From positions 528,379-592,378 of the forward strand of contig CAVTSB010000001.1 in assembly GCA_963737255.1 (NCBI GenBank): a DNA stretch of 64,000 nt, in the 5' to 3' direction. The DNA comes from an uncultured Bacteroidales bacterium (GTDB lineage Bacteria; Bacteroidota; Bacteroidia; Bacteroidales; VadinHA17). The notes beneath the pieces are model-generated. The model did no database searches. It worked only from the letters and a program-made list of their open reading frames with translations, and had not been told where the DNA came from. Shown here one piece after another: positions 9,480 to 49,415 of this stretch (within the stretch, counting starts at the first letter, position 1; every line of letters starts with the position of its first letter). Both the position numbers and the translations under genes were made by a program.

Positions 9480-11801
9480 GTGAAAAACTTATTATTGATA
9501 TTCCGGAAACTGAGAAAGAGCAAGTCGGCTACTTTACTTGGGATCGCCGGACTTGTGGTCGGAATGATGTGCGTGTTCTGCATTTTTCTGCTGGTGACCG
9601 ATGAAATCAGCTATGACCGTTTTCATAAGCAGGTTGACCGTATCGTTGTGGTTCACGCTTATCTTGAAGGCGGGACTGATAAAGTTGATTTCAACGGTTG
9701 TCCGCCTGCAGTGGCTACCGCTTTAAGGGATGAATACCCGGAGGTTGAAACTACCTGCCGTTACATTCCGCCATATATACAATATCTGGTTGCTTACGGA
9801 GAAAACAGATACATTGAACGAACGGCTTTTGCCGACTTTACATTTTTTGATATTTTTTCGTTCCCGTTTGTTTACGGCGATAAAGGAGAAGCTGACACCC
9901 CTGACAGGATTGTTCTCACAGAGACAGTTGCCCGAAAATATTTCGGAAAAACCAATCCTGTCGGGAAAATTGTCAGGATGGATAACCGGGTCGACATGAC
10001 TGTGGTAGGGGTAATTAAAGACATCCCAAACAATTCGTCTATTACTTTCGATGCATTGATTCCACTCGAGAACATTCGGGTTAATTATTCGAGAACCGAC
10101 TATTTGTCAAGCTGGTACAACAATGGTTTTGTAACATTTGGCTTACTTACCACTCCTGAAGGTTTTGGGAAAGTAGCATCAACAATTACCCGGCGTATTC
10201 AGAAGGAATTGCCTGAATCGACTAATTACCTGAGAGCTTATAAATTTAAAGATGGCTATTTGTATGAACAGAAACATATCCGTAATGTTCGCATTTTCAG
10301 TATGATTGCATTGCTGGTCCTGTTAGCTGCAACGTTGAATTTCATTAATCTGAACACTGCCCGCTCGTCGAAGCAGGCAAAGGAAACAGGCTTGCGTAAA
10401 ACATTCGGGGCATCACGCATGAATGTGGTACGTTTGATCTATTCCGATGTGGCAATAATCTGTCTTCTGTCTTTTGCACTTGCTGTTCTGCTGGTCTATG
10501 CCGGATTGCCATTAATTAACAGGGTGATCGGGAAGGAAATCAGTATGGCAACAATGTTTTCATTCATACCTCTGGTTGTACTGTTCGTCATATACCTGCT
10601 GACGGTCCTGTTAGCTGGTAGTTATCCGGCGTTTTTTCTCTCATCGTTTTCTCCTGCCCAGATATTAAGTTCAAACTTCCAGACAGTCAAAAACCGGGGC
10701 ATTTTCCGAAATACGCTTGTAGTCGTAATGTTTGTTGTTTCGATTATATTGCTTTCATCGACCCTGGTTATATCGAAGCAAACCGGATACATGCAGAAGA
10801 TGGACCTCGGCTTCGAAAAAGATCAGTTGATGTATATCAGTCTTAAGGGGAAACTGAAAGAACAGGTCCAGGCCCTGAAACAAGAGCTGGGAAGTTCTCC
10901 CGGTGTGATTTCCACATCCGTTGTTTCCTACCTGCCTACTCAGATTGGGAATAATGGTGAAGGTTGGACCTGGGAGGGGAAAGACCCTAATTTCAAACCA
11001 TTGGTTACATCATGGGAAACGGACGAAGATTTTCTTAAAACATTCGGGGCAAAAATGGTTGAAGGTGATTTTTTTAATAAGGATCAGGAAGGAATCGTTA
11101 TCAACAAGACATTTGCCGATATAATAGGCTGGGATAGTTTTACCGGCAGGACATTGACCGGTTATGGAACACCATACCGTGTCCTGGGCGTTATTAAGGA
11201 TATACATTTTAATTCATTGGCAGCTGAGACAAAACCGATGTATATGGAAATGGTGGACAACTTAAAAAATTACCTGATCATTAAGGTAAATACTGACAAT
11301 ATTGGCAATACGATCGATTTTATCCGGAAAAGCTGCCAGGCTATTGAACCTTCGTTCCCTGTTGATTATGCTTTTTTAAATGACAGGTACGATCAACTGC
11401 TGGCATCCGAAATCAACCTGAAAAAGCTGGTTGGCATTTTTTCAGTTTTTGCCATTGTTGTATTATTCCTGGGCCTGTCAGGCATGGTCATGTTCCTTAT
11501 TGAACAAAAAACAAAAGAAATAGGTATCCGGAAATGTCTGGGTGAAAAAGTATTGTCGATTACCGGTCAGATAATAAAACCATTTCTGATTTCAGGGATA
11601 ATAGCAATAATAATTGCTGTTCCGGTAACATTGTATGTGATGGAGCGCTGGCTTCAGAGTTATGCTTATCATATTTCTCCTGATATCCGTGCTTTTTTAA
11701 TATCCGGAACTATCATAATCGGAATAGCTTTACTGACAGTGTTATTTAAAAGTCTGAAGGCTGCAACAAGGAACCCGGTTGAGGCATTACGGTATGAATG
11801 A
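9480..11801 (+). CDS. MacB/FtsX-family ABC transporter permease
   Basis: DEISYDRFH, NFINLNTAR...KETGLRKTFGA, KEIGIRK, NPVEALRYE; intact 773 aa. Confidence 0.92.
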   Translation: MKNLLLIFRKLRKSKSATLLGIAGLVVGMMCVFCIFLLVTDEISYDRFHKQVDRIVVVHAYLEGGTDKVDFNGCPPAVATALRDEYPEVETTCRYIPPYIQYLVAYGENRYIERTAFADFTFFDIFSFPFVYGDKGEADTPDRIVLTETVARKYFGKTNPVGKIVRMDNRVDMTVVGVIKDIPNNSSITFDALIPLENIRVNYSRTDYLSSWYNNGFVTFGLLTTPEGFGKVASTITRRIQKELPESTNYLRAYKFKDGYLYEQKHIRNVRIFSMIALLVLLAATLNFINLNTARSSKQAKETGLRKTFGASRMNVVRLIYSDVAIICLLSFALAVLLVYAGLPLINRVIGKEISMATMFSFIPLVVLFVIYLLTVLLAGSYPAFFLSSFSPAQILSSNFQTVKNRGIFRNTLVVVMFVVSIILLSSTLVISKQTGYMQKMDLGFEKDQLMYISLKGKLKEQVQALKQELGSSPGVISTSVVSYLPTQIGNNGEGWTWEGKDPNFKPLVTSWETDEDFLKTFGAKMVEGDFFNKDQEGIVINKTFADIIGWDSFTGRTLTGYGTPYRVLGVIKDIHFNSLAAETKPMYMEMVDNLKNYLIIKVNTDNIGNTIDFIRKSCQAIEPSFPVDYAFLNDRYDQLLASEINLKKLVGIFSVFAIVVLFLGLSGMVMFLIEQKTKEIGIRKCLGEKVLSITGQIIKPFLISGIIAIIIAVPVTLYVMERWLQSYAYHISPDIRAFLISGTIIIGIALLTVLFKSLKAATRNPVEALRYE

Positions 11802-12098
11802 ACTTTTCAGGCCTGCGCTGCAATTGTGACTGGTTAATCATGCAATTAAATCCTGAAATAATATCCAGGTTATTGCTGACTATTTACCCGGATAATGTTT
11901 AACTTGAACTGATTTTATGAAGATTGAAAGTCAGGCAGGCGTAGATAATGGGGTAATATACGGGGAGGGGAGGATGTCGCTTTTGTGACTGACGGGGCTG
12001 TGGTTTGTCAATAATGATGCATGAGTTGATGGAATCAGGTTAATTTACAAACGAAAGCATAACTTTATCCGCACAGGACTGATAAAAAATTTATACTG

Positions 12099-13314
12099 AT
12101 GAAAAACGCAATTATCAAATTCAGCGCTCTGATAGTGCCGGTTATTCTTTTCGGATGTTCATCAGGTGTTCAATCGCCTCAGCAGGAAGAGAAACCGGCA
12201 AAAAACGATTATTATGTGGCGGCGTATATCTGGCCGTCGTGCCACGACGATTCGTTGGGCAGGGAGAAGCTGTGGCCGGAAGGCACCGGCGAATGGGAAG
12301 TGATTAAAAAGGGCAATCCCCGTTTCGACGGACACTACCAGCCCCGTCAGCCGCTCTGGGGTTATGAACTGGACAACGATCCGAAAGTGGTTGAAAAATG
12401 GATTGATGCAGCCACTGACCATGGTGTAAATGTATTCGTTTACGACTGGTACTGGTATGAAGGGGGCCCATTCCTGGAAAGCGCCCTTAACGATGGTTTC
12501 CTGAAAGCCAGGAACAATGAAAAAATGCAGTTTTACATCATGTGGGCCAACCACGATGTGAAGTACAATTACTGGAACTATCACCGTTACAAGGACAATA
12601 CTGATATCCTGTGGAACGCCAAGGTGGACTGGAAAAACTATCAGATCATCGTCGACAGGGTCATCAACCAGTATTTCAAGCGACCGAACTATTTTAAAAT
12701 TAACGGCGAACCTGTATTTTCAATCTTCAGCGTGAACAAACTGCTGGAAAGCTTTGGCGACAGTGCGGAAGAAGCCCGTAAAGCGCTTGATTATTTCCGT
12801 GATGAAGTGAAAAAGGCCGGTTTCCCCGGGCTTGCATATCCAGTGGAACCAGGGCGGCGGCTCAGTGATGTCGGAAGAGGCAGCCGCGAAGTTTACCAGC
12901 AGTGTGAAAGCAATGGGTTTCAACAGTGTTGCCATGTACAATATGGGTGGACTCGATGAAGATTATATTGTTTATGGCACCAATTCTATCAAGATACGGG
13001 AACAGATGGACGCTATTCTGGATGTACCGGTCTTTCCCTGCGTGTCAATCGGATGGGACGATACGCCGCGTTTTCCCGCAAAAGGCATCCATGATGTGGT
13101 GCACTACAACAACACACCCCAGAGTTTTGCAGCCCTGCTCTCCAAAGCAAAAAAATATGCCGACAGCCATCCCGAACAGCCCAGGCTGATCACAATCAAC
13201 GCATGGAACGAATGGGTGGAAGGCAGTTACCTGTTGCCCGACATGCTCAACGGATTCGGTTATCTGGAAGCAGTGAAGGAGGTGATCATTGACGGTAAAT
13301 ACGACAGGTATTAA
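12099..13314 (+). CDS. Glycoside hydrolase family 99-like (WbsX) lipoprotein, one frameshift near 12830
   Basis: ORFs 12099-12959 and 12832-13314 join as GFPG/LHIQW; motifs FVYDWYWY, MWANHD, GWDDTPR, NAWNEWVEGSYLLPD. Confidence 0.82.
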
Positions 13315-13341
13315 ACCGGGAGGAGAATGTTTACAAACCGT

Positions 13342-13377
13342 TAAAAATAAGACGACTCGTTGATTTTTTATAACGTC
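13342..13377 (+). repeat. 3' end of the long cassette-spacer element (variant)
   Basis: AAAAATAAGAC...TTGATTTTTTATAAC-GTC resembles the 43905-43946 copy. Confidence 0.5.
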
Positions 13378-13411
13378 AGGCACAATAATAACTTAAAACA
13401 AATTTAATGAT

Positions 13412-14080
13412 ATGAGACAAACTTTCTTTATTTTCCTTTTTTTGCCGGGTCTGATCTTTCTTACCTCTTGTGAAAAGAAAAAAGATTTACTTATCGATGG
13501 TGATGGTAATGTGTATGAAACACTAACTATTGGTTCACAGGAATGGCTGACTGAGAATCTTAAGACCACAAAGTACAATGATGGCACTCCGATTACTTTA
13601 ATAACCGAAGGTAATGAATGGTCACTGACAACTGCAGGAGCTTATTGCTGGTATGACAATAATCCTGCATTTTATAAAGATACTCTGGGTGCATTATATA
13701 ACTGGTATGCCGTTGATACAAGGAAGCTTTGCCCGAAAGGATGGCATGTGCCTTCCGGAGAAGAGTGGACAACAATGATTACTTATCTGGGAGGGGATGA
13801 TGTGGCCGGTGGAAAATTAAAATATATTGGTACTGACTATTGGTTATATCCAAATGAGGGGGCCACTAACGAAACCTCGTTCTCTGCGCTTGGTGCCGGC
13901 TTCAGATTTTACCTTGATGGAGACTTTCGGAAAATCGGGATTGACAGTTATTTTTGGTCTTCATCAGAAGCAACAAATACTACAGCGTACAGGCTGGGCT
14001 TAAACCATTTTATCGAAGGGGCACTCTATTCTACAAGTACCAAACCTCATGGTTTTAGCGTACGGTGCACGAAGGATTAA
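13412..14080 (+). CDS. Fibrobacter succinogenes major paralogous domain lipoprotein
   Basis: Lipobox LTSC; DGDGNVY..IGSQEWLTENL, LYNWYAV, LCPKGWHVPS..EW, GFSVRC. Confidence 0.9.
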   Translation: MRQTFFIFLFLPGLIFLTSCEKKKDLLIDGDGNVYETLTIGSQEWLTENLKTTKYNDGTPITLITEGNEWSLTTAGAYCWYDNNPAFYKDTLGALYNWYAVDTRKLCPKGWHVPSGEEWTTMITYLGGDDVAGGKLKYIGTDYWLYPNEGATNETSFSALGAGFRFYLDGDFRKIGIDSYFWSSSEATNTTAYRLGLNHFIEGALYSTSTKPHGFSVRCTKD

Positions 14081-14129
14081 AAACAAAGGCAGCTAATATC
14101 GGTTGAAATTCAAATTTATAACAACCTAC

Positions 14130-14828
14130 ATGAAAACACGTAATATTTTGTGTCTCTGCTATTGCCTGGCCTTTATATTCTCCTGTTCTGTTTCAGGTCA
14201 GTCTTCTTTTCTTAAACACTATGAAACCAGGGAATCATTGGAATCAGATGGCAATGAGATTATTGCCGAATTCGACCTGTTCATTAAGGACCAGGGTTTT
14301 AGTCTACCCGCTATTCCAAAAGTAAAAATTCAAACTGAACCATCGTTAATCAGAATAGACAGGCAAAATAATACTGTTATTGTGCCTTATTGGGACGACC
14401 TGACAAATGATCAGAAAGAGATTTTTAAATCATGGAGAGGCGAAAATGCCGAGGAGTTGTTTGTTTTAATGTTCAACTGGTTTTTTATACCACATGAACT
14501 TGGCCATTTTATTAATCCGATGATTCATGATTTAAATCCTTATCAATGTGAGCGGGAAGCAAACGAGGTTGCTGTAATGTTTTTCAGAAGAAATCCTGAA
14601 AATTTTGAAAAGCTTGATTTTCTAAAGAAATCATTAACGCAAGTTCTGGAAATTCTGCCAAAAATTGATTTTGGTAATATGTCAGAAGCGGAATATTTCA
14701 ATGCCAATTATCAGAAGATTGGGAATAACCCAAATGTATACGGGTACTTTCAACTCAAGTTTATACTGAACATATTAAATAATCAGAAAGATTTTAGTAT
14801 TAAAAAGTATTTTGATCAGCAATTATGA
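14130..14828 (+). CDS. Hypothetical exported protein with HExxH metallopeptidase-like motif
   Basis: Likely start ATG 14130; HELGH followed by EREAN. Confidence 0.65.
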   Translation: MKTRNILCLCYCLAFIFSCSVSGQSSFLKHYETRESLESDGNEIIAEFDLFIKDQGFSLPAIPKVKIQTEPSLIRIDRQNNTVIVPYWDDLTNDQKEIFKSWRGENAEELFVLMFNWFFIPHELGHFINPMIHDLNPYQCEREANEVAVMFFRRNPENFEKLDFLKKSLTQVLEILPKIDFGNMSEAEYFNANYQKIGNNPNVYGYFQLKFILNILNNQKDFSIKKYFDQQL

Positions 14829-14831
14829 TCA

Positions 14832-14896
14832 TTTCGGATTTCAGATTTCGGATTGTGTGTTTCTAAATCCGCAATCCGCAATCCGCAATCCGCAAT
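14832..14896. repeat. Inverted heptamer module (TTTCGGA)n ... (ATCCGCA)n
   Basis: Four tandem ATCCGCA units facing TTTCGGA-type units; homologous module at 16003-16080. Confidence 0.85.
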
Positions 14897-14934
14897 AATT
14901 TAACCGATTATTTCTTCTTTCTGCTGGTTACAAT

Positions 14935-14982
14935 CCGATAAAATAGGACCACTTTTTGATGATTTATAACGAATTAGGTTTC
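14935..14982 (+). repeat. 3' end of the long spacer element plus cassette start (ATTAGGTTTC)
   Basis: CACTTTTTGATGATTTATAACGA-ATTAGGTTTC; the final 10 bp complement GAAACGCTAAT (15897-15907) with one bulge. Confidence 0.75.
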
Positions 14983-15125
14983 ATAGCCTCGAATTAACAG
15001 ACTATCTGCATCTTAACCATTTACATGAAACTCAAAGATTTCACACCATGACGACTGAACTTCTTCCCAACTGGACAAAAAAAAATAGAAAAGCAGACAA
15101 CCTGCTAACTTTAAATTATCTAAAA

Positions 15126-15857
15126 ATGAAATTAAATCCGTTATTAGTCATCGCACTTTGTGCATTGTATTTTTCTGGATGCGGATCGAATCCTACAGGA
15201 GATATAGATGCGATTAGCAAAAACCCATATGATACTTTAATCATTAGAAAAATAAGTAATGAATTATATATTTGTACCTGTAACCCCAATAAATCTTTTC
15301 CAAGCGGAGCAGGGAATTTATATTTTCAAGGAAAATGGAAACAAGATTTAGTAAACAAGGAGGTTGATTATAGAAATTGTGATGAGAGATTTTTAATTCA
15401 ATGGGATTTATCCGAATTACCAAAGGGGATTGAGATAGTCGAAGCTAAAATGGAGTTGTATTGTAATGATTTTAAAGGTGATAAACAAGGACAATTAGTA
15501 TACGAGTCTATAACTGAACCATGGAATGCTGATATTGGATATAGCAAAAAACCAAATACCATAATTGATGATAGAGTCTTAACTGATTGGCCAAAAGCGA
15601 AACAAAATCATGTCATAGATATTACAAATTTTATTAAAAAATGGTACTATAATGAAATTCCTAATTATGGATTGATGGGGTATAGTATTAATACTGAAAC
15701 TACGAATTCGGCAGTGTTTTGTTCTTCCATATATCCCGATAAAGCATTACAGCCAAAACTTGTAGTTATTTTTAAAAAGAATAAAGCATTTAATAAAAGT
15801 AAAGAAATTGTATATGATCAGGACCAGATTTCTGAAATAGACGGAATACATCTATAA
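15126..15857 (+). CDS. DNRLRE-domain (CBM96-like) lipoprotein
   Basis: Likely start 15126, lipobox FSGC; RFLIQWDLSELP..IVEAKMELY, DIT..IKKW...PNYGLM, PKLVV. Confidence 0.72.
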   Translation: MKLNPLLVIALCALYFSGCGSNPTGDIDAISKNPYDTLIIRKISNELYICTCNPNKSFPSGAGNLYFQGKWKQDLVNKEVDYRNCDERFLIQWDLSELPKGIEIVEAKMELYCNDFKGDKQGQLVYESITEPWNADIGYSKKPNTIIDDRVLTDWPKAKQNHVIDITNFIKKWYYNEIPNYGLMGYSINTETTNSAVFCSSIYPDKALQPKLVVIFKKNKAFNKSKEIVYDQDQISEIDGIHL

Positions 15858-15904
15858 AAGGACTGATTCACACCCTGACCAGATTTAACATGCTACGAAA
15901 CGCT

Positions 15905-16287
15905 AATACACAGGGCTTTAAATGGTGCGTAGCACCCGGTGGGGATCTCCGGTTGAATTTTATCCGTAACAGAAGGATAATCTGCAAGAATTTATTATGA
16001 TCATTTTGGATTTCGCCCGCCTGCCGGCAAGCAGGTATTTCGGATTGTATGTTTCTTAATCCGCAATCCGCAATCCGCATTCAGGAGATCAGGAGCCCGT
16101 TCGATGATCTTTAAGGTATTCCGGGAAAATATCCTTTTCATGGATTTTAATAAGTAAAAGATATGAGTTTACTTAATAATTGAGGTAATGGGTGTTGAGG
16201 GTTATGATACCCAAAAAAACAACCCGGATGGATACTGTTTACAACCCCGCAAAAATTAGACAACTTTTTGGTGATTTATAACGAGTT
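15905..16287 (+). repeat. Full-length (~383 bp) intergenic cassette-spacer element, copy A
   Basis: AATACACAGGGCTTTAAATGGTGCGTAGCACCCGGTGG ... GGGAAAATATCCTTTTCATGGAT ... TTTTTGGTGATTTATAACGAGTT; colinear with the copy at 41035-41390. Confidence 0.85.
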
Positions 16288-16353
16288 ATGTGTAAGGTTG
16301 GGCGCATCCGGACATAAAAAAAATAGTTACCTTTAAGGGATCATTCTTATAAA

Positions 16354-17190
16354 ATGACAGATTCGTGGTCAAAAATAGAAGTAGCATTAATTGTCGCTGA
16401 CTATTTTGATATGCTCAGCAAAGAGCTAAGCCGGTTTCCATATAAAAAAGCAGACCATAGAAGACAAATATTACTTCTTCTTAATAACAGATCAGAAGGA
16501 TCGATCGAATTTAAGCATCAAAATATCAGCGCAATACTGATAAATCTTGGTAGACCATATATCACTGGATATTTGCCACGTTATAATTACCAAAACCTGT
16601 TGGAAGACGAAGTTATAGACTACCTGATACATCATTCTGAAATTGAATCCGATTTCCACCAGTTTGTTGAAAAGGATTTAATTAAGCCACAAACCAGACT
16701 TGACTTTGAAAAAATTATTGTAACGCCTCCCGAGATGCTTACTGTAACTGAACCGAAACCATTATATAAACATAAAACTATTAAAATTAATTACTTAGAG
16801 AAAGAACAATCAAACAAAGTCATCGGACTATATGGAGAAGAAATAGTTATCGAGTATGAAAAATGGAATCTCATCAGATTAGGGAAAGACAAACTAGCTG
16901 ACAAAATTAAATGGATTTCAAAAGAAGAAGGTGATGGGGCTGGTTTTGACATCCTATCAAAAAACCTAAATGGAACAGATAAATATATCGAAGTAAAGAC
17001 GACCAGACTTGGAAAGGAAACACCCTTTTTCTTCTCTTCAAATGAACTTCAGTTTTCGATTAACAAAGCCACATATTATCATTTATACAGATTATTCAAT
17101 GTCGAAAGTGATGTTAAGCTCTTTCAAAAAAATGGGGCCTTGAATACTATTTGCAATTCTATTCCGACAATGTATAAGGGTTATTTCTAA
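16354..17190 (+). CDS. DUF3883 (NOV-C)-domain PD-(D/E)xK restriction-endonuclease-like protein
   Basis: N-terminal WSKIEVALIVADYFDML...SIEFKHQNISA; C-terminal GEE..IEYE, GDGAGFDILS, YIEVKTT, FFFSSNEL, YHLYRLF. Confidence 0.82.
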   Translation: MTDSWSKIEVALIVADYFDMLSKELSRFPYKKADHRRQILLLLNNRSEGSIEFKHQNISAILINLGRPYITGYLPRYNYQNLLEDEVIDYLIHHSEIESDFHQFVEKDLIKPQTRLDFEKIIVTPPEMLTVTEPKPLYKHKTIKINYLEKEQSNKVIGLYGEEIVIEYEKWNLIRLGKDKLADKIKWISKEEGDGAGFDILSKNLNGTDKYIEVKTTRLGKETPFFFSSNELQFSINKATYYHLYRLFNVESDVKLFQKNGALNTICNSIPTMYKGYF

Positions 17191-19728: not shown

Positions 19729-19740
19729 AAGCCTAAGTAT

Positions 19741-19805
19741 AAAACACAGGGCTTTAAACGGTGCGAAGCACCCGGTAATGGAGCCCCGGTTGATCTAAAT
19801 CCCTC
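19741..19805 (+). repeat. 5' part of the long spacer element, copy B
   Basis: ACACAGGGCTTTAAACGGTGCGAAGCACCCGGT...CCCCGGTTGA. Confidence 0.85.
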
Positions 19806-19873
19806 CAGTAATGATATTATGGGGATTCAAAAGGGTTTTGTAACGATTGTTATTGTGTTGATAAGGGAAAAAG

Positions 19874-20423: not shown

Positions 20424-20809
20424 ATGACAACACCTCCTTAATAGTTACCAAAGGCTGGTCCTACTGTAATCCGCTTTGCGATGCCGGAGCAGGTTATGGT
20501 GATTACCAGGAAAGGTCGTCACGGTTTTTGCTTTTACGTCAGGTTGCCTAGCTCCTCACGGAACTCATTCTCAATTACCTTTAACATATTTCAAATGATA
20601 TTATAATTATGCACTCATGATAACAAACCTCTAAGAAAACGCTGTTTAATTTCCCGGCTTGCCTCCTGAGTAAGAAGCCTCCCATTACCCTCCCTCCGCA
20701 AGCCTCTATTTCTCAGCCACTTTGATTAAGAGCTACGCAATCTAACCTCTTCGATATAATTTTTATCCCTGACAAATAATAATCTGATTCACCTGATAAA
20801 AAACAGAAA

Positions 20810-25544: not shown

Positions 25545-27901
25545 ATGTTAAGCAACTACTTCAAAATCGCACTCCGGAATATCAGAAGGTATTCAACATA
25601 TTCAATTTTGAATATTAGCGGAATGGCCATTGGCATGGCCTGTTCAATTTTGATTCTTTTATGGGTACAGGATGAATGGAGCTACGACAGGCATTTCGAT
25701 AATGCCGATAATTTATACCGTGTGATCGGAGACATGGGTACTACCAGCGGAGAAAGCTCTTTGACAGCAACAACACCTGCACCATTAGCAAAATCCCTGA
25801 AAGAAGAATATCCAGAAATAATCAGATCTTCCAGATGTGGCGTTGGTTCCCTGTTATCATTTAAAATGGGTGAGGAATTTATAGAAGAAACCGCTGTCCC
25901 TGTTGATAATGATTTCTTAAAAATGTTCAATATTGAGTTTGTTGCGGGGGATATCAATAACGCTTTAAACGCGCCCAACAATATTGTTCTTACAGAAAAA
26001 ATAGCAAAGAAATATTTCGGTAACGAATATCCGATTGGCAAAACATTAAAAATGGCGGAATCTGATGAAATATATACAATTACTGGAGTTGTAAAGAATC
26101 CGCATAATAGTCACCTCATGTTTGACTTATTGATTCCAATTAAGCTCAGAAAAGAATTTGAAAGTCTTAAAAGTGATATGCAAGTGTTTTGTTATAATTA
26201 TGTTGAGTTAATAAAAGGTACTGACAGTAAAATAGTTAATGAAAAAATCCGAAATTTTTTAGAAGATCATTCAAGCATGATGACTTTTGTGATTTCCCTT
26301 CAAAACATCAAAAACATCCATTTGTATTCTTCCGGAAAATATGGTCAGGATATAAAAGGCCATGGTGACATTACTTATGTAAGAATTATGTGCCTCATTG
26401 CTGTTTTTATTCTTCTTATTGCCTGTATCAATTTTATGAACCTTTATACTGCACAATCTGCCAGAAGGGCCAGGGAAATTGGTTTACGCAAAGTGGCAGG
26501 AGCAAATAGAAGAAAAATATTTGTTCAATTTATGGGAGAATCTCTGTTGCTGGTATTTATTTCCCACGTAATATCTATGATTTTAGTTGAATTGCTACTG
26601 CCCGGTTTTAATAACCTTATTGGCAAACAACTTGATATTAACTATCAAAGCCCTCATTTATATGTAGGGTTGATTGCAGTTATACTGTTTTGCGGTATAT
26701 TGGCCGGAAGTTATCCAGCCTTGTATCTGTCTTCATTAAAGCCACTGAATACAATAAAGGGTGTAATTAATAAAAATCCCGGCAATGCACAATTCAGAAG
26801 AGTTCTGGTTATTTTCCAGTTTTCCTTGTCGGTCTTGCTAATCATATGCACCTTAACTGTTGGAAATCAACTCAACTATATTCAAAATAAGAGTCTTGGA
26901 TTAAATAAAGATAACATAGGCTATTTTACGAGTCACACCAGACCTAAAGGCTCCACGCTTGACGACTTAAAAAAAGAGCTTTTAAACAATCCGGATATAG
27001 TGAGTGTAACCCGGGGCAATAATCCTGTCAACATTGAGAATAATGCCAATGGCTTTAATTGGACAGGAAATAATGAAGGTAATGATGTTTCATTTTATAT
27101 TTTGAGTTGTGATGCAGATTATGCCAAAACCTTTCAGCTTGAGCTTAAGAAGGGGCGTTTCTTTTCTTCTGAATTTTCAACTGATTCTTCTGCAGCAGTA
27201 ATTAATGAAAAGTGCTGCAGAAATCATGGGATTTAATGATCCAATCGGGGAAATTATATCGACACCCTGGGAATCGAAATTACATATCATAGGTGTAGTA
27301 AAGAATTTTCACTTTAAATCTATGCATTATAAAATTGAACCGCTTATTATGACATTAAATCCGGATATCGAATTTTTTATCAGGATGAAGCCTGATAGAG
27401 TACCATCAATTGTTTCTTATATTAAGAAAACTATACAATCATTTAATCTGCCTTATCCCCTGAATTTTCATTTTTTGGCTGATGATTATAACAATCTATA
27501 CCGGACAGAACAAAGAATGAGTAAAATATTTGGCTATGCCTCATTTCTTGCAATCTTCATTTCATGTCTTGGTCTTATAGGACTGTCTTCATTTATGACA
27601 GAGCGCCGTACAAAAGAAATCGGGATAAGGAAGGTTAATGGAGCAAAATCAATTGAATTATATTCACTTCTGTCAAAGGAATATCTCAATCTGGGTGATT
27701 ATTTCAATACTCATTGGATCACCTGTTGCCTGGTATGCCATGAATAAATGGTTGCAAAGTTATGCATACCGGATTACTTTAAATCCATGGATTTTTGCTG
27801 TGGTTGGCCTGATTGTTCTGTTTATCGCATTGCTTACGGTAGGTCTTCAATCGTATAAGGCTGCAAGAAAAAATCCGGTCGAGGCACTGAGGTATGAGTA
27901 G
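25545..27901 (+). CDS. MacB/FtsX-family ABC permease, two frameshifts
   Basis: NYFKIALRNI, DEWSYDRHF, ACINFMNL, EIGLRKVAGA; continues in ORFs 27205-27747 and 27638-27901 to NPVEALRYE. Confidence 0.88.
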
Positions 27902-28052
27902 GAGGAGTGAGGCCAGATCAAGACAACAGTTAAGAGATAAAAATTAAAGAGTTTGTTTGTTTAACTCCGTGACTTTAACTCCGTGATACTCCGTGTTTAA
28001 ATGGATCTATAACTTTACAACTATACAACTTTACAACCATACAACATATACC

Positions 28053-30437
28053 ATGCTCCGGAATTACTTCAAAATCGCCTTTCGAAATATCAAAAGACAT
28101 TCCACTTATTCAATTCTGAATATCAGCGGCATGGCCATTGGCATGGCCTGCTGCAATTTTAATTCTTTTATGGGTTACAGGATGAATGGAGCTACGACAG
28201 ACATTTCAAAAATGCCGACAATCTTTATCGTGATTATTGAAAAGAGAATCCTTCAGCAGGGTGTCTCACTGGTTGCAACACGCCGGGAGCTATTGACCTC
28301 AAGTTCTGAAAGAAGAATATCCTGAAATAATAAGGGCAACAAGATATGGACCTCATCCCGAATTAATTCTTCAAAAAGGTGATGAATTTATAGCAAGAGA
28401 AAGCGGTTGCAATGGTTGATAATGACTTTTTAAAAATGTTTGATATCGAGTTCGTTCATGGTGATATAAACAATGCCTTAAATGAACCACACAATATTGT
28501 TATCACTGAAGAAATGGCCTCAAATACTTCGGAAATGAGGATCCTCTCGGCAAAACAATGACAGAATCAGTTGGGTATCAGGTTACTGTTACCGGTCAGT
28601 ATGTAAAGAGATATGCCGTCAAACAGTCATATCCAGTTTGATTTTATGGTTCCCATTGAGTTGTAACGGACAGAGGAGCGCCCTAAATGACTGGAGTATC
28701 TGGCTGACATAATTATATTGAACTATCAAAGACGGAACAGATAGTAAATTACTTGAAGAGAAAATACGGTATTTTTTAAAAAAGCATAATCATAGGATCA
28801 CTAATTCGCGAGATTTTCCTTCAAAACATCAAAAAAATTCATCTGTTATTCTTCCAGGAAAATATAATTATGATATTAGCGGCCATGGTGATATTACTTA
28901 TGTAAGGATTATGAGCCTTATTGCTGTTTTTATTCTCCTCATTGCCTGTATCAACTTTATGAATCTTTCTACTGCCCAATCAGCAAGAAGAGCAAGGGAA
29001 ATTGGGATACGTAAAGTGGCAGGGGCAAACAAAGGAAAGAATAATCTTTCAGTTTTTAGGTGAATCACTGTTGATTGTGCTTGTGGCCCATGTTATTGCT
29101 ATGATCTTGGTTGAATTGCTTTTACCCGGCTATAACAATCTTACAGGAAGCAATTGCATGTTAATTATCAGAGTCCGGGTTTATATATTGGTCTAATCAG
29201 TATTGTTTTGTTTTGCGGTTTACTGGCAGGAAGTTATCCGGCATTTTATCTTTCATCTTTAAAACCGCTGGAGACAATAAAAGGGTTATCAATAAAAATC
29301 CAGGTAATCCGCGATTCAGAAGAGTTCTTGTTATTTTCCAGTTTTCACTTTCAGTTCTACTAATTATATGCACGCTGGTTGTAAGGAGACCAGACTTCAC
29401 TATATGCAGAAAAAGAAGCCTGGGATTTAATAAAGATAACATAGGATATTTTATATATCCTGCAGCCCCATGGGATCACAAACTGAAAACTGTAAAAAAC
29501 GAGCTAAACAATAATCCTGATATATTAAGTGTTACATGTTGCTCCTAACATGAAATCCTTTCAACATGGAGGGAACCACAATGGCAATCTTAACTGGACA
29601 GGCAAAAAGGAAGGTGACGATATTTTATTTTATGGTCTCGATGCTGATGACGATTATGCCAGAACGTTTCAGCTTGAACTGAAGGACGGTCGTTTCTTTT
29701 CTTCTGAATATTCAACGGATTCAAGTGCAATAGTAATAAATGAAAAGGCAGCAAGATCCTTGGCTTTAATGATCCTGTTGGGCAAACAATTACAGCTCCG
29801 AGTGGATCATAAATATAATATTATCGGAGTGGTGAAGGATTTTCATTTCAAATCATTACATCATAAAATCGGACCCTTGATTATGCGAATCGGCCCATCT
29901 AACTTTTCTTTATCAAGATGAAACCTGACAATATCACTTCAACAGTTGAATTCTATCAGAAAAACATATAATTCCTTTAAACCAATACATCCCCTTGATT
30001 TTCATTTTCTTGATGATGATTTTGATAACCTGTACCAGACTGAACAAAGAATGAGATAGAATATTTGGTTATTTCTCTATTCCTGGCAATCATAATTTCA
30101 TGTCTTGGACTTATAGGATTATCCTCATTTATGACGGAGCGCAGGACAAAAGAGATCGGAATAAGGAAAATAAACGGCGCAAAGTCCAATGAAATATTCT
30201 TCTTGCTGTCAAGAGAATATATTATATGGGTAATGATCTCAATTATAATTGCATGTCCGATTGCCTGGTATATCATGAATAAATGGCTTCAAAATTTTGC
30301 TTACCGGATTAACATAAGCTGGTGGATATTTGCACTGGCAGGCGTTATTGCTCTGCTTATTGCATTGCTTACAGTGAGCTGGCAATCGTATCAGAGCAGC
30401 AGGTAAAAATCCGGTTGAGGCGCTGAGGTATGAATAG
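28053..30437 (+). pseudogene. Tandem paralogous MacB/FtsX ABC permease, many frameshifts (pseudogene or assembly errors)
   Basis: MLRNYFKIAFRNI start; fragments colinear and visibly similar in DNA to 25545-27901; ends NPVEALRYE-TAG. Confidence 0.8.
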
Positions 30438-30618
30438 GAGAATTATGCAGGCTATATATTAACTGTTGATGCTCCATATGTATGCCAGTAGATACAATTC
30501 ACGGAGAGTGTCCCTTCGCCGTCAGGCACATTACGTAATATTTTGACCGTGAATCCGCTGAAGTAATATCTGGGGATACTTTTTCTATTGCGTTTGATAG
30601 AAATAAAAATTAATAATT

Positions 30619-32947: not shown

Positions 32948-34036
32948 ATGGCAAATCTTAATCAGTATATTCCACAAGTTGCTTTTCATCCAGGTGAGAC
33001 TCTCTCGGAAAAATTGGATGAACTAGGAATGGGGCCAAAAGAATTCGCTGTTCGAACCGGGAAACCTGAAAAAACAATTATTGCAATTATCAAAGGTAAA
33101 AGTTCTATTACTGCAGAAATGGCAGTTCAATTCGAACATGTACTTAAGATACCGGCTCATTTTTGGTTAAATATACAGCGTAACTATGATGAGTTTGTTG
33201 CACGTGAAGAACGAAAAACAGTTCTTACGGCTTCCATTGGTTGGGCAAAACTATTCCCAATAACAGAAATGATAAAAAAAGGTTGGTTACCTCAAAACAA
33301 ATCTATAGAAAGCAGGACTGCAGATTTGCTGGCTTTCTTCAGTTTAAGTAACCATGTTGCCTGGGAAGATTACTATTTAAAACAACAGCTTAAAGTTGCA
33401 TTCAGAATTTCACTTGCACACACAAAGGAACCCTATGCAATCTCAGCTTGGCTACGCAAAGGAGACCTTCAAGCATCAGAATTAACTGCAATTGATTACA
33501 ATGAAAAAAACTTCAAGGATGCTTTGCCTGATATCAAGTCAGTAATGGCTAAACACCCGGTTGATTTTCCCAAAAAATTACAATCAATCTGTTTAGCCGC
33601 CGGCGTAAAAGTTGTTTATACTCCATGTTTACCAAAAGCACCAATAGTTGGATCAACCAGATGGCTTAATGATACTCCACTTATCCAATTATCAGGTAGA
33701 TACAAAAGAAATGATAGTTTTTGGTTTACATTTTTCCACGAAGCTGGGCATATAATCTTACATGGGAAGAAAGACATTTTCTTAGAAAAAATTGATTATT
33801 CAGATTTTGATAGAAATAAGGAAGAAGAGGCTGATAGTTTTGCCATTAAATGGACACTTACAGAAGAAGAAGAACAAGAAATTATTGAATCTGCACCATT
33901 AACTGAAGCTGATATTAAATCTTTCGCAAAAAGATTTAATACACATCCTGCAATAATCATTGGAAGATTACAACATGATGAGTTAATTCCATATGGATTA
34001 GGAAGACAATTCTTTAGACCTGTTGAGTTTAATTAA
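32948..34036 (+). CDS. higA: HigA-family antitoxin (Xre HTH) fused to an ImmA/IrrE metallopeptidase domain
   Basis: FHPGETL.E.L, ITAEMA, FWLNIQRNYD; C-terminal FWFTFFHEAGHI, E.EADSFA. Confidence 0.85.
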   Translation: MANLNQYIPQVAFHPGETLSEKLDELGMGPKEFAVRTGKPEKTIIAIIKGKSSITAEMAVQFEHVLKIPAHFWLNIQRNYDEFVAREERKTVLTASIGWAKLFPITEMIKKGWLPQNKSIESRTADLLAFFSLSNHVAWEDYYLKQQLKVAFRISLAHTKEPYAISAWLRKGDLQASELTAIDYNEKNFKDALPDIKSVMAKHPVDFPKKLQSICLAAGVKVVYTPCLPKAPIVGSTRWLNDTPLIQLSGRYKRNDSFWFTFFHEAGHIILHGKKDIFLEKIDYSDFDRNKEEEADSFAIKWTLTEEEEQEIIESAPLTEADIKSFAKRFNTHPAIIIGRLQHDELIPYGLGRQFFRPVEFN

Positions 34037-34132
34037 ATCCATCGCTCAGATCGCTTTAGATTGACCAGAAAGACGTCCGGGGCAAGGTTCTTAGACAGAC
34101 TCCCGTTGTGTGCAATTATAAAAAATGACATT

Positions 34133-34783
34133 GTGTTAAAAGAGAGACCCTTAATTGATAAAGAAATAAGAATCCTCAAGAAGGATATAAACCAGCTTGC
34201 CAAAAGAAATACTTTTCAAAAGAGGTTTCTGCTTGGTTGGACTATTGTGGCTATGATTGTTGTTACAATTGTTTTCTTTAGACTTGATTCGAAGGCCGAA
34301 TATTATCTTTTATTTGGGGCTGTAGTCATTTACATTTTGATTGGAGTATGGGTTTATCTTGAGAATGTTATTAAAATTAAGAAACAGAAGAATAGTATTG
34401 ACTTTGTTTTGGCAGAGAATAAGGCAAAATCAATTAAAATTGTTTCGAATAAGTATATTGAACTGTCTGAAGTCGAAGATGAAGGAGTATTCTATTTGTT
34501 CCAGATTGAGGATAATAAAATCCTTTCTTTTGGCGGTCAAGATTATTATCCAACTAATAAATTCCCAAGTGATGATTTTGAGATAGTAATGTGTCATGGG
34601 AAATCAGGGGAATTAGTACTACTTGAAAAATATGTAAACGGAAATAGAATTCAGCCGATTCAGAAAATAACTGGACATAGAAAACTGGAATTAATAAGTA
34701 GGTCAAAGTATCCAAACCCGAATAATTTTACAGTTATAGAGGGACAAATTGTACAAATTGAAAGTTTATTAATGAAAAAATAA
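34133..34783 (+). CDS. Hypothetical two-TM membrane protein (cassette gene)
   Basis: Likely GTG start at 34133; bracketed by GTTGTGTGC (34105-34113) and GCACACAAT (34786-34794). Confidence 0.7.
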   Translation: MLKERPLIDKEIRILKKDINQLAKRNTFQKRFLLGWTIVAMIVVTIVFFRLDSKAEYYLLFGAVVIYILIGVWVYLENVIKIKKQKNSIDFVLAENKAKSIKIVSNKYIELSEVEDEGVFYLFQIEDNKILSFGGQDYYPTNKFPSDDFEIVMCHGKSGELVLLEKYVNGNRIQPIQKITGHRKLELISRSKYPNPNNFTVIEGQIVQIESLLMKK

Positions 34784-34791
34784 CCGCACAC

Positions 34792-35082
34792 AATACATAT
34801 GGCTTTAAACGGTGCGAAGCACCCGGTGGTGAGCACCGGTTGAACAAATTCCCTCAGATGATTTACTATGGTGACTAAACCGGATTTTATAATTATTAAG
34901 TAAGATGATTGATCAGGGCAAGATTTTGGATTATTCCCATATAGGGATGCCATGCCGTGACTTTACAATCGACATAAGATAATGCCGTAGGGATATGCCA
35001 TGCATCCCTACCAAAACCATGGCATGTGCCTACCAACACAAAAAACAAATCAATTTACCAGGGAGCCCGGGAGACTCCTGTT
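34792..35082 (+). repeat. Mosaic spacer: 5' part of the long element (copy C), GTAG-type REPs, and a GGAGACTCCT-GTT end
   Basis: GCTTTAAACGGTGCGAAGCACCCGGTGG at ~34802; GTAGGGATATGCCATGCATCCCTAC at 34987-35011; CCTACCAACACAAAA.ACAAATCAATTT...CCCGGGAGACTCC shared with 47386-47441. Confidence 0.8.
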
Positions 35083-35132
35083 AAGTAACATAAAATTTCT
35101 ACCTGCAGATTAATCACTAAAAATTGGTATTT

Positions 35133-36119
35133 ATGAAATTATTAATTTTAATTGCCGTAATCATATTTTTTACAAATTGCAGGCACGATAAATCCGTCTG
35201 GGAGATGAAAACGCCCATGAGTACCAATCGTGCATTTCATTCCATTGCAGCTATTAATAATAAAATCTATGTATTCGGCGGATCTACCGGTAAAAAATCT
35301 GAATTCAGGGATACATCTTGTTCCGAGATGTATGATCCTCAAAAAAATAAATGGATTAGCCTCGCTCCGATGCCAGAACCTATAACTACTTCTTGTGCAA
35401 TAGCCCTGGGTAGAAAGATTTACATAATTGGCGGACAACAAAGCATTTTTTCCAAAAGAATTAGCAAAGTTTTATTATATGATCGTATTTCGAATGAATG
35501 GACTTATAAATCTCCAATGAATATTGCCCGGGCGTTTCATTGCGTAACAGCTTTAAACAATAAGATATATGCAATTGGCGGAAGAGAGTCTGATTCAGAA
35601 ATAAAATCTAAAAGAAGGGATTCACTGGCTGTTTATACGATCGAGGAATACAATACTAACACTGACAAATGGACCATAAAGAAAATATTACCTTTCAGGC
35701 ACTTTGCTATAGGCGCTGCAACAATCAATAACAAAATTTATATTCTTTCAGATACCATTAGCAATTTCACATTGGGGAAATCTGCAATCATGGAAGAATA
35801 TGATCCAGCAAAGAACTCCCTGAAAATTATCGCATCAATGACTCCTTCAAGATATGACGTTGCAATGACAACAGCCAATAATAAAATATATGTATTTGGA
35901 GGTTGGAATCAAGGCTCACTTTCCTTAGTTGAAGAATATGATCCTGAGTTGGATAAGTGGACTAATAAAAGCAATTTACCTTTTGCCATTCAAAATTGTC
36001 AGGCAATTTCCATCAGGAATCGCATTTTTATTTGTGGTGGAATAATTTATCCAAGGGATGGAAATGAAAAGCTGGATTTCATGATAGAATATTTTTCTAA
36101 TAGAGACAAACCAAACTAA
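35133..36119 (+). CDS. Kelch-repeat lipoprotein
   Basis: Lipobox FTNC; repeated KIYVFGG...YDP..N.W; bracketed by GTTAAGTAA (35080-35088) and TTACTTAAT (36141-36149). Confidence 0.9.
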   Translation: MKLLILIAVIIFFTNCRHDKSVWEMKTPMSTNRAFHSIAAINNKIYVFGGSTGKKSEFRDTSCSEMYDPQKNKWISLAPMPEPITTSCAIALGRKIYIIGGQQSIFSKRISKVLLYDRISNEWTYKSPMNIARAFHCVTALNNKIYAIGGRESDSEIKSKRRDSLAVYTIEEYNTNTDKWTIKKILPFRHFAIGAATINNKIYILSDTISNFTLGKSAIMEEYDPAKNSLKIIASMTPSRYDVAMTTANNKIYVFGGWNQGSLSLVEEYDPELDKWTNKSNLPFAIQNCQAISIRNRIFICGGIIYPRDGNEKLDFMIEYFSNRDKPN

Positions 36120-36146
36120 GCCCAGTTGATTGAAAATACATTACTT

Positions 36147-36178
36147 AATACATACAGCTTTAAACGGTGAGCAGCACC
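36147..36178 (+). repeat. 5' fragment of the long spacer element, copy D
   Basis: AATACATACAGCTTTAAACGGTGAGCAGCACC. Confidence 0.7.
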
Positions 36179-36313
36179 AACTTATGGAAAGTTACCGGCC
36201 AACTGTAGTAATAAATCCTACTGGTACAAACCAATAGATGAATTTGCTGATCTGCTGAACCAACGCGCTATAACTTAATTACATTTTTTAATAAAAACGT
36301 CATACTACATTCA

Positions 36314-37432: not shown

Positions 37433-37481
37433 TCTCTCGAGACAAATGGGTGACATATACCATGATTAAAAAACGCACTAT

Positions 37482-37569
37482 AATACCCAGGACTTTTAAC
37501 GGTTTAAAGCGCCCGGTGGGGATCTCTGGTTGAATTTTATCCCTTACAGAAGAAAAATCTGCAAGAATT
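37482..37569 (+). repeat. 5' part of the long spacer element, copy E
   Basis: AATACCCAGGACTTTTAACGG...CCCGGTGGGGATCTCTGGTTGAATTTTATCC...AATCTGCAAGAATT, close to copy A. Confidence 0.85.
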
Positions 37570-37654
37570 GATTAATCCTTTGCATCTATATTTCAGGCTG
37601 GATTTATAAAAGAAAAAACATTCCATCTGAGCATCTGGAAAAATTATTGCAGGA

Positions 37655-38065
37655 TTGAGCTTTGGATTTATCAGACTTGGAAACTTTATGAATTCTGAAA
37701 TTATCGGCATTCCGACAACAAAACCCTGGGGTGTGATTTTTGAGCGGGTTGATTACGTACCAAGACACCCGGCTCAATTGTACGAGGCGATTTCTTATTT
37801 TATCATTTTTGCGGTTATGATGATTCTTTACAAAAAAATGAGAGACAGACTCAAGAACGGATTCTTTTTTGGGCTTGCAACTGTATTATTTTTTACAGCC
37901 AGATTTATAATTGAATTTGTAAAGGAGAACCAGGTCGGATTTGAAGATGGAATGAAATTCAATATGGGGCAACTTTTGAGTCTTCCTTACATTGTCGTGG
38001 GAATTGGATTTATTATTTATGGATTAATGAAAACTAGAAAATTACTCAACGCTGACATCCAATAA
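37655..38065 (+). pseudogene. lgt: C-terminal half of prolipoprotein diacylglyceryl transferase (5'-truncated)
   Basis: [47 protein letters not shown]; N-terminal half absent. Confidence 0.8.
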
Positions 38066-38198
38066 TTAAGTTTCTTCCTATCTGGACAACTTCGTAAACC
38101 TCGAGATTGCTGCATCATGACAATTAATGCACGTTAAAAAAACAAATTAAAAACTGGTACACTTTTTGTAACAATTTGTATATCTAACACCTAAGGTC

Positions 38199-41021: not shown

Positions 41022-41034
41022 TAAAACGAAGCAC

Positions 41035-41390
41035 AATACACAAGGCTTTACACTGTGCAAAGTACCCGGTGGTTAGCCCCGGTTGAATTAAATCCTCTAT
41101 AAAAGGATTTTCGACAGGAATTCATCTCCGATACTGCAGAATTGCGGAAATTAACGTTCCTGTAACCGTGCGGGATATTCAGAAAATCAGGAAGCTGTAT
41201 GATGCTCTTTAAGGTGTAGCCAGGGAAAATATCCCTTTCAAGGATAATAATAAGTAAACGATTTGAGTTACATTAATAAATGTGAGTTAATAGGTGTTGA
41301 GGGATATGTGACCAAAAAAACAAATTCAACAAGGGCGTACTAAGTTTACCAACCCGGTACAAGTAAATCCACCTTTTGATGACAAAAATA
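41035..41390 (+). repeat. Near full-length long spacer element, copy F
   Basis: AATACACAAGGCTTTA...GTGCAAAGTACCCGGTGG...GGGATATTCAGAAAATCAGGAA...GGGAAAATATCCCTTTCAAGGATAATAATAAGTAAA...GGTGTTGAGGG...CACCTTTTGATGA. Confidence 0.85.
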
Positions 41391-42875: not shown

Positions 42876-42906
42876 CATTTCACAAAAAACTATATAAAAC
42901 CCTGTC

Positions 42907-43000
42907 AAACACAGGGCTTTAAACGGTGCGAAGCACCCGTGGTTAGCCCCAGCCCAATTAAATCCCCCATAAAAGGATTATCCAAAGGATTCATTTCAGG
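42907..43000 (+). repeat. 5' part of the long spacer element, copy G
   Basis: ACACAGGGCTTTAAACGGTGCGAAGCACCCG.GGTTAGCCCC...AATTAAATCCCCCATAAAAGGATTATCC...GGATTCATTTCA. Confidence 0.85.
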
Positions 43001-43776: not shown

Positions 43777-43782
43777 ATATAA

Positions 43783-43946
43783 CAACACATAACACGGATA
43801 ATGCTACATGGGTCGTGATGCCAATGTAACTTTTCCGTGACTTGAAAAATCCGGTTCTCTATCGTGAACAAGAACAACCCAGGCACGTTTCTGGTACTGA
43901 AGGAGTGTAAAAAATAAGACCTTTTTTTGATGATTTATAACGAGTC
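43783..43946 (+). repeat. attC-like spacer ending in the long-element 3' motif
   Basis: Starts CAACACATAAC just after the stop; ends AAAAATAAGACCTTTTTTTGATGATTTATAACGA-GTC. Confidence 0.7.
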
Positions 43947-47352: not shown

Positions 47353-47359
47353 CACATTT

Positions 47360-48293: not shown

Positions 48294-48315
48294 CAATATA
48301 ATTACATGAACACAA

Positions 48316-48350
48316 AATAAACAGGGTTTTTAACAGTGCGTCACACCCGG
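48316..48350 (+). repeat. 5' fragment of the long spacer element, copy H
   Basis: AATAAACAGGGTTTTTAACAGTGCGTCACACCCGG. Confidence 0.7.
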
Positions 48351-48391
48351 CGGTTAATGATAATTTTTTATCTTTCATAAAAAGAATAATT

Positions 48392-48817: not shown

Positions 48818-48910
48818 CATCCCTTCCATGGATAATAATTAGTTAAAAATATGAGTTACCTTATAAATAAAGCTACTCTTCAATGATTTTTAACGAGTTG
48901 GCGGTCATTT
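48818..48910 (+). repeat. 3' half of the long spacer element (internally deleted) with GTTGGCGGTCATTT cassette start
   Basis: ATCCCTTCCATGGATAATAATTAGTTAAAAATATGAGTTACC ... ATGATTTTTAACGA-GTTGGCGG. Confidence 0.8.
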
Positions 48911-49171: not shown

Positions 49172-49253
49172 CCAAAATTTATCACTCAGGTACAATTTCA
49201 GCCAGGTTTTCTTTTAGCTTCACAGAATGAATTCTTAAAAACACAATTACCAT

Positions 49254-49415
49254 GTGCGCAGCACCCGGGGGTGAGTTCCATGGAAATAAATACCCCACAT
49301 AAAGATTATCCATAGGATTCATTTCAAGTATAGCAAAACCGAGGAAATTTGTGCCCCTGTAAGCATCCGGGATATTCGGAAAATCAGGAATCCATTTGAT
49401 GATTTTTAAGGAGTC
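49254..49415 (+). repeat. Long spacer element, copy I (shortened)
   Basis: GTGCGCAGCACCCGG...GATTATCCATAGGATTCATTTCA...GGGATATTCGGAAAATCAGGAA...TTGATGATTTTTAAGGAGTC. Confidence 0.8.

Follow-up and report, generated by a model that had tools for sequence, protein, structure and literature searches.

The subject of this work is a repeated non-coding element of ~380 bp in a 64,000-nucleotide stretch of DNA (the window, C1:528379-592378 in a 5.1-Mb genome) from an uncultured Bacteroidales bacterium of freshwater sediment, where copies lie between the genes of a plus-strand run, ~13.4-59 kb of the window, that forms an integron-like cassette array of the kind found in Bacteroidales. We conclude, with a probability that we place at roughly 0.7, that the repeat is a mosaic junction in which the inverse core of the preceding cassette is followed by the end of an insertion sequence (IS) of the IS91 family and, in copies A (15892-16285, 394 nt) and F (41021-41516, ~495 nt), by a fused integrase relic, a spacer and an attI-type site; short forms measure 105-190 nt. 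The parts are identified by their counterparts elsewhere in the genome and in metagenomes, the IS-like 5' module has a fixed position and orientation, sister strains have exchanged cassettes between the G and the TT of the attI-type module, and a gene, its spacer and the attI-type module behind it move as a unit.

The original prediction, made from the sequence alone, placed the 5' end of the repeat at nine positions, each soon after a stop codon, and the 3' end at six. All nine 5' ends were recovered at E<0.01 with a profile built from six copies, whereas the 38-mer matches at up to 3 mismatches (chance expectation in the window 0) only at 15905, 19741 and 34792; six of the profile matches are strong; the weak ones, at 49253, 48313 and 36144, have E values from 1e-4 to 4.5e-3. 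All of the window copies are intergenic and on the plus strand. A search of the whole genome with the profile gives 22 copies of the 5' module at E<0.01 and the observation on stop codons extends to them, with 21 of the 22 starting 9-67 nt past the stop of a co-oriented open reading frame (ORF, at least 77 residues) and one at 244 nt. The six 3' ends were likewise all found by profile, at 13315-13384, 14916-14983, 16223-16296, 41333-41403, 43883-43953 and 48846-48908, together with a weak seventh match at 49381-49421. Copies A and F, described as colinear over ~350 bp, align in two blocks (98 bp with 73% and 148 bp with 79% identity) but not beyond them, and the 3' module of copy F stops after TTTTGATGA.

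The 5' module begins directly after the inverse core of the cassette that it follows (..YTAA|T). The 14 nt ahead of it are variable and end in YTAA, and in 6 of the 22 genome copies their reverse complement is found exactly at the start of the same cassette, behind a junction module. In copy A the inverse core (R''-like, 15892..15906, plus strand, GCTACGAAACGCTAA) belongs to the cassette with the gene at 15048-15857, and its reverse complement resembles the cassette start TTAGGTTTCATAGC at 14974, 936 nt upstream and directly behind the 3' module at 14954; the pair reads TACGAAACGCTAAT vs AATTAGGTTTCATA. A seventh case, that of the cassette at 40517, is confirmed by a joint in sister strains. 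The R''/R' complementarity of a classical attC site is thus present in those copies. Chance alone often yields matches with up to 3 edits (1.2-6.9 per search), so what counts is that these matches lie at module edges. In the metagenome copies considered below the module is preceded by ..TA (..YTAA|T) at 54 of 61 loci.

Sequence comparison identifies the 5' module as the last 35-250 nt at one end of an IS91-family element with genes for a Y2 transposase and a tyrosine recombinase. Metagenome contigs scanned with a pattern yielded 62 copies, 20 of which have within 1 kb of the module a 381-residue ORF on the opposite strand that matches Pfam Y2_Tnp (1e-51), Zn_Tnp_IS91 and NCBIfam transpos_IS91 NF033538 (389.6 bits against a cut-off of 125); an IS91 transposase was found at 7 of the 16 loci extending at least 2.6 kb downstream. 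In 14 loci a gene for a tyrosine recombinase of 212-287 residues, 34-49% identical to the enzyme encoded on contig C5 of the present genome, precedes the transposase. The far end of the IS lies ~2.4 kb from the module, where 11 loci end with ..GCGGGATTTAGTTCAAC, an inverted copy of the module's GTTGAACTAAATCCC. Joined to each other, the two IS ends fold in 4 of 4 loci into an imperfect hairpin of 75-76 nt (z score -6.1 to -7.2), with a 13-bp outer helix, a stem S1 (GGGCTTCAT/ATGAAGCCC) and a mini-hairpin GGTGC-GWA-GCACC at its tip, and this modeled structure is predicted to be an attC-like site of the IS itself. At one locus (L142) the whole IS sits between the inverse core of a cassette and a 3' arm of classical type. 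Another repeat, ACGGACAA..GGTAAGTTGTTYGTCAC..TTTTTGCTTT (ACGGACAA..GTTYGTCAC..TTTTTGC), often stands directly after the far end of the IS (L107, L111, L122, L142 and L150) and also occurs alone in the window at 38751-38800, ~49430-49470 and ~20495-20535.

A profile of the IS end, built from the transposase-distal end of 10 gene-bearing metagenome copies, recognizes the 5' module of copy A (15907..16013, E 1.4e-8) over positions 1-120, comprising stem S1, hairpin H1 at 15924..15936, the IS inverted-repeat box GGTTGAAT and a small TTATCC/GGATAA hairpin. These features and all other modules, relics and attI-type sites given below with window coordinates are on the plus strand. Window copies retain from positions 1-65 up to positions 1-130 of the IS end: 1-65 in copy F (41026..41113), 3-80 at 42900..42985, 3-116 in a short form with an AAATCCC/GGGGATT hairpin at 19733..19855, and 1-130, with a tail, at 34784..34968, where sister strains join another cassette at 34968. 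The module at 37473..37574 belongs to the same set, those at 36144..36178 (profile E 0.0045) and 48313..48356 (E 8.9e-4) are degenerate, and the one at 49253..49409 is partial and runs into an integrase relic. IS genes are missing from all 22 genome copies. The only gene-bearing IS in the genome, on contig C6, is decayed, retains transposase residues 1-343 and has lost this end; a profile of the far end has no match in the window and one in the genome, namely the C6 element. A miniature inverted-repeat transposable element was considered and rejected, as the window copies retain one end only. A classical attC-like site (..GCCCTAAC..GGCACTTACCGCCTAAC|GTTAGGACG) is found at G000:C6:33380-33530, 1.9 kb from the decayed C6 element.

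The H1 hairpin was originally noticed as GGTGC-GAA-GCACC, in a repeat said to open with a GCGAAGC mini-hairpin. The stem GGTGC-N3-GCACC is real but its loop varies: GCGAAGC is present in 3 of the 9 window copies, copy A has a GTA loop (GCGTAGC), and the 62 metagenome copies divide into 32 with GAA and 30 with GTA. A second hairpin, CCGGTG-N5-CACCGG, is present in the 34792 copy but in no other. Over 67 distinct copies stem H1 is paired by Watson-Crick bases in 319 of 335 cells (G.T 5, A.C 5, other 6), with one doubly compensated copy (GATGC/GCATC), and stem S1 has 438 Watson-Crick, 50 G.T, 13 A.C and 79 other cells. It is very improbable, in our view, that the module is instead a structured RNA of the 3' untranslated regions of the cassettes (a terminator, a stabilizer or a small RNA). 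Its place just after a co-oriented stop codon in 21 of 22 copies, the conservation of its hairpins and the excess of G.T over A.C cells on the sense strand of S1 would suit such a role, but a third stem has the reverse bias (18 G.T vs 49 A.C), no T-run follows the hairpins, and the fixed position and orientation follow from the rule of IS insertion. Rfam models give no hit in 15850-16350 even at E<=1, leaving the structured RNA of the original prediction without support, and a search of the whole window at the gathering score finds only a tRNA.

A rival that we hold to be unlikely, if less so than an RNA, is that the S1/H1 hairpin is the body of a short native class of attC (inverse core, hairpin, G|TTGAAC; ~60 nt), that an IS91-type element inserted at its G|TT and that the window copies represent attC sites scarred by that element. 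In 13 of the 62 metagenome copies H1 is not followed by the IS inverted repeat, several changing sequence right after ..CCG/G|TT; GTTGAAY in the array orientation fits the usual GTTRRRY core; and in sister strains the junction after the cassette 40517-41035 is only 72 nt long. Set against this, 47 of 60 scorable copies run on into the IS repeat, the hairpin is carried at the other end in all 11 loci with a located far end, and in the joined-ends fold it stands between the two inverted repeats and completes the attC-like site of the IS. Moreover, the module has no match in 80 related platform loci and only 2 weak matches in 40 relatives, both from the same genus.

The 3' half of copies A and F is, as its homologies indicate, an integrase pseudogene relic followed by the post-gene spacer and an attI-type site. 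The relic in copy A (16079..16114) amounts to the last 11 codons, IQEIRSPFDDL-stop, and agrees with the end of the C5 recombinase at 10 of 11 residues; the spacer (16115..16236) is homologous to the DNA after the C5 gene, to copy F and to C3:13668-13887; and the attI-type site (16237..16285), with first repeat GTTTACAACCCC and second repeat plus core TTTTGGTGATTTATAAC-GA-G, is built like the C5 site and is directly followed by the next cassette at 16286 (TTATGTG..). Between the 5' module and the relic, copy A has a private dispersed repeat of 66 bp (16017..16082, no strand assigned), a GC-rich palindrome with ATCCGCA tandem heptamers that is also found at 14845-14890 and is matched by BLAST at 7 places on 5 contigs of the genome (plus strand 3, minus strand 4). 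The relic of copy F (41105..41212, GFSTGIHLRY..VTVRDIQKIRKLYDAL-stop) spans ~31 residues with a small deletion, 24 of them aligned by tblastn at 50% identity and the GIHLRY extension read by eye. Its attI-type site is shortened (41333..41382), ending at TTTTGATGA, and 134 nt more precede the cassette start at 41517. In the 49254 copy a 26-residue relic (KYSKTEEICAPVSIRDIRKIRNPFDD, E 0.004, the last codon F and the stop read by eye) follows the partial 5' module and its last codons themselves form the junction.

Further relics place these fragments in context. A decayed integrase relic lies at 43863-43937, preceding the attI-type module at 43883..43944. Three platform relics, at C3:13200-13900, C1:11380-12100(-) and C10:153250-153800(-), share one internal integrase deletion that joins the upstream region of the integrase to ~codon 333, followed by the spacer and the attI-type site, which suggests that a non-autonomous platform unit has been copied. 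Two further kinds of 3' end were seen. The type-B module is found behind another integrase relic at C1:190013-190253 and also behind 5' modules on C10 and C11; the other, ..AGACAGACTCCC|GTT, corresponds to the 3' arm of a hairpin site of the classical type. Other origins were considered and rejected. The relic does not derive from the IS's own recombinase, being on the wrong strand and closer to the C5 enzyme; an intact integrase nested between 5' module and attI is contradicted by the lack of a 5' module upstream of the C5 gene and of a co-oriented integrase after any metagenome copy; and the only match suggesting that the 5' module itself is integrase-derived, 37473-37526, has an E of 22 and no frame-consistent support.

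The C5 locus to which the relics refer was found in a genome search for integron integrases, which gave no match to an integron integrase above the cut-off but did reveal an intact tyrosine recombinase of 387 residues at G000:C5:648181-649344. Against TIGR02249 this protein reaches 189 bits, short of the cut-off of 265, and aligns in two segments (model 2-179 and 239-315) with the catalytic-domain insertion specific to IntI left out between them; it lacks that insertion and has an N-terminal extension of ~115 residues. In a search of the PDB XerA is its best match and the IntI4 chain matches in two stretches; the array recombinase is Xer-like, with cassettes co-oriented with its gene. The sequence ..GTTTACAACCCGG..TTTTGATGATATATAAC-TA-GTTAGGG, 190 bp 3' of the stop codon, has the layout of the attI-type site, namely two repeats and then TTATAAC-GA-G|TT. 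Among Genome Taxonomy Database (GTDB) genomes a relative of the recombinase is encoded in 587 of 600 matched stretches, mostly from Bacteroidota, and where downstream DNA was inspected 21 of 25 loci have a similarly built site 100-190 bp 3' of the gene, with two direct repeats, the second ending in ..TATAAAC-N-AGTTR. The hallmarks of an attI (100-190 bp past the gene, two direct repeats, ..TATAAC-N1-2-G|TTR) are thus found at the C5 locus and in those relatives, and the window copies share the build. Several relatives also have a ~130-nt classical attC hairpin whose inverse core matches the attI-side core. After the C5 attI site come five tandem gene-less units of ~355 bp (G000:C5:649523-651310; L001:2500-3534) that look like empty cassettes, each ending in the same classical attC-like hairpin site, ..GGCTAAAC|GTTAGGGTC; for one of these sites the fold has z -4.5 (top strand) and -6.4 (bottom strand), with the ends paired.

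The window junctions behave differently. As originally noted, their two ends do not pair like L''/L' boxes: in a test of the 5' segment against the downstream 45-650 nt the best duplexes of 21 copies have z from -1.45 to +1.62, no better than the shuffled controls, and are located at the expected junction in only 4 of the 21. Five elements made of a 5' module and a type-B end fold with z -0.65 to +1.08, vs -4.5/-6.4 for the classical attC of the same genome, so that the paired arms of a long attC hairpin are not seen in them. Classical attC sites measure roughly 57-141 nt, and copies A and F fall outside that range. That the whole unit from 5' to 3' module is a single functional recombination site of a new long type, its ends selected together, appears to us quite improbable, although the unit stands where an attC would be, the gene travels jointly with spacer and 3' module, and both ends persist as the middle shrinks from ~380 nt in A to ~130 nt in a form joined in one sister strain. 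Besides the lack of pairing, no fewer than four kinds of 3' end are found with the 5' module (attI-type A, attI-like B, the classical arm ..AGACAGACTCCC|GTT, others), 3' modules stand without a 5' module at 13315, 14916 and 43883, and the interior is recognizably pseudogene.

Exchange at these junctions is visible in sister strains, contigs of four sediment metagenome runs that match window 33001-50000 at 90-99% identity and whose cassette orders differ from that of the window. In X2, X3 and X4 position 43944, the final G of the attI-type module, is joined to the cassette at 40517 (..TTTATAACGAG to TTGTGCTTAATT..), exactly at the G|TT of the module; the joint reads ..ATAACGAG|TTGTGCTT, and the inverse core of cassette 40517 matches its start. 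X2 and X4 join 34968 to 41517 with one inserted G, giving G|TTCACTC, and in both of these joints the crossover lies between the G and the TT of the 3' core, as in a classical integron. A third joint, 41035 to 39141 across 72 nt (X2, X3, X4), places two cassettes, 39141-40454 and 40517-41035, in the order opposite to that of the window. X3 joins 37574 to 43910, so that the 5' module passes directly into the attI-type module 43910-43944 in a form of ~130 nt, and in X2 and X3 there is also a joint from 42853 to 44013 that is away from any recognizable site. Over 10448-16462 the window is matched colinearly by the sister contig L116, which has in addition 1.7 kb between two copies of the attI-type module, the one that stands at 13315..13384 in the window. 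The added DNA begins behind ..ATACGAG|TTGG, and at its other end are the same ORF tail, spacer and attI-type module as at 48627-48908 of the window; the gene therefore travels with the module as its 3' site. The view that the repeat takes the attC position is borne out by these data, its 3' end being a live crossover point in the population.

Three further attI-type modules in the window were located with the 3' profile. The one at 13315..13384, behind a frameshifted WbsX-like gene, is probably the head of the array; that at 14916..14973 ends in ..TTTATAACGAA|TTAGG; and a short form at 48846..48900 lies behind the ORF 48522-48815, the tail of which, with the same module, heads the array in L116.

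Taken together with the identities of the parts, these exchanges lead us to the following scheme for the mosaic junction. An IS would have invaded the recombination sites of cassettes and destroyed their 5' arm, later deletions would have removed the IS genes and fused the IS end to a neighboring platform relic, and the attI-type module, bound in double-stranded form by the recombinase encoded on C5, would be the working 3' recombination site of the cassettes, with the IS end a passenger or, at most, a supplier of hairpins. Of the ideas in the original prediction, a non-autonomous element that replaced attC interiors suits the 5' module, but by the criterion that the prediction itself set, the match to an IS end refutes one new recombination spacer.

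Several points weigh against this scheme. That the C5 enzyme binds and cuts the attI-type module is something we infer. Five or six of the window copies share the same join behind different genes, for which a single random deletion is insufficient. As set out above, the hairpin could be a native short attC class merely targeted by the IS, the copies of H1 that lack the IS inverted repeat pointing in that direction. No convincing match between inverse core and cassette start was seen in 15 of the 22 copies; the window contains no complete IS, and the sole gene-bearing copy of the genome, that on C6, is incomplete and without this end. Finally, the joints come from assembled metagenome contigs, which are prone to mis-joining at repeats, and several have short sides (21-39 nt). 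A bolder proposal, which we regard as possible yet rather doubtful, is that the hairpin end is a gene-less mini-cassette derived from an element with both IS91 and recombinase genes, inserting backwards at inverse cores and rebuilding hybrid sites; fused to an integrase tail and attI it would form a portable docking site, and cassettes would be exchanged between double-stranded attI-type copies and not folded attC hairpins. Were exchange of this double-stranded kind to occur, it would suit a recombinase without the hairpin-reading insertion of IntI.

The system is best appreciated alongside those already known. In IS91-family elements the origin end differs from the terminus, a fixed tetranucleotide of the target adjoins the origin end, and no target duplication arises; the members closest to the present case have an upstream tyrosine-recombinase gene, a subgroup listed in ISfinder. 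The gene-bearing copies described here share with the family the Y2 HUH transposase, the structured ends and the two-gene layout; they differ in that the window retains only the terminal 35-130 nt, without genes, and in that the element is always right behind a cassette inverse core in one orientation. Our literature search found no paper on attC-targeting IS91 elements or their target rule. Site- and orientation-specific parasites of integron attC sites do exist in the form of the IS1111-attC insertion sequences and the group IIC-attC introns. The present element resembles them in its site- and orientation-specific insertion in attC sites, but the former use a DEDD transposase and the latter a reverse transcriptase, while the element considered here has other enzymes and is a cassette mimic with its own attC-like site. 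ISCR1 of complex class 1 integrons is IS91-like and lacks a companion recombinase and an attC-like end; it has in common with our case an IS91-like element that adjoins an integron and is linked to rearranged neighboring integron DNA.

Compared with classical integrons, the array shares the pairing of inverse core with cassette start, the G|TT crossover, the two upstream attI repeats and the presence of classical hairpin attCs in the same genome. It differs in its recombinase, without the IntI insertion and with the N-terminal extension of ~115 residues, in junctions that do not fold as attC hairpins, and in the recurrence of attI-type copies inside the array, a situation on which our literature search found no paper for Bacteroidota. 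According to the IntegronFinder 2.0 report, complete integrons are almost absent from Bacteroidetes. Close in description is rAID-1 of gut Bacteroidales, with its XerD-like recombinase, genes that share one orientation and intergenic repeats resembling those of integrons (Ross et al., bioRxiv 10.1101/471110). The settings differ, gut Bacteroidales there and here a freshwater-sediment genome with a mixed cargo of Kelch, methyltransferase, hydrolase, DUF3795 and Rce1-like genes.

The mosaic junction matters as a case of cassette arrays remodeled by a parasite aimed at their recombination sites: an IS91-type element replaces the 5' arm of attC and leaves hairpin stubs at a third or more of the junctions of this genome. 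The array still shuffles in nature, with attI-type copies as cassette boundaries, and should the attI-type sites be used as proposed, the Xer-type integron-like systems of Bacteroidota would exchange cassettes without hairpins. Standard integron finders are expected to miss such systems because the recombinase lacks the IntI insertion and the junctions are unfolded. For annotation, the stubs are better labeled as IS remnants and integrase pseudogene fragments than as new RNA genes or attC classes.

Other repeats were seen in and around the array. An unclassified family of junction repeats, centered on ..GCCATGGCATGTCCCTGCCAAMAC.. and with internal palindromes, occurs at 34990-35078, 47376-47441, 53365-53419 and ~56330-56380 of the window, and a stretch of 101 bp (45796-45896 vs 49028-49128) is 91% identical between two cassette regions. 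A MacB/FtsX-type permease gene is included in a 2.4-kb duplication of 73% identity (25554-27904 vs 28062-30440), the second copy of which is split into several short ORFs. The right edge of the array (59126-59519) has a minus-strand tRNA gene, and behind it a tandem duplication of 167 bp (97% identity) that overlaps the end of the gene.

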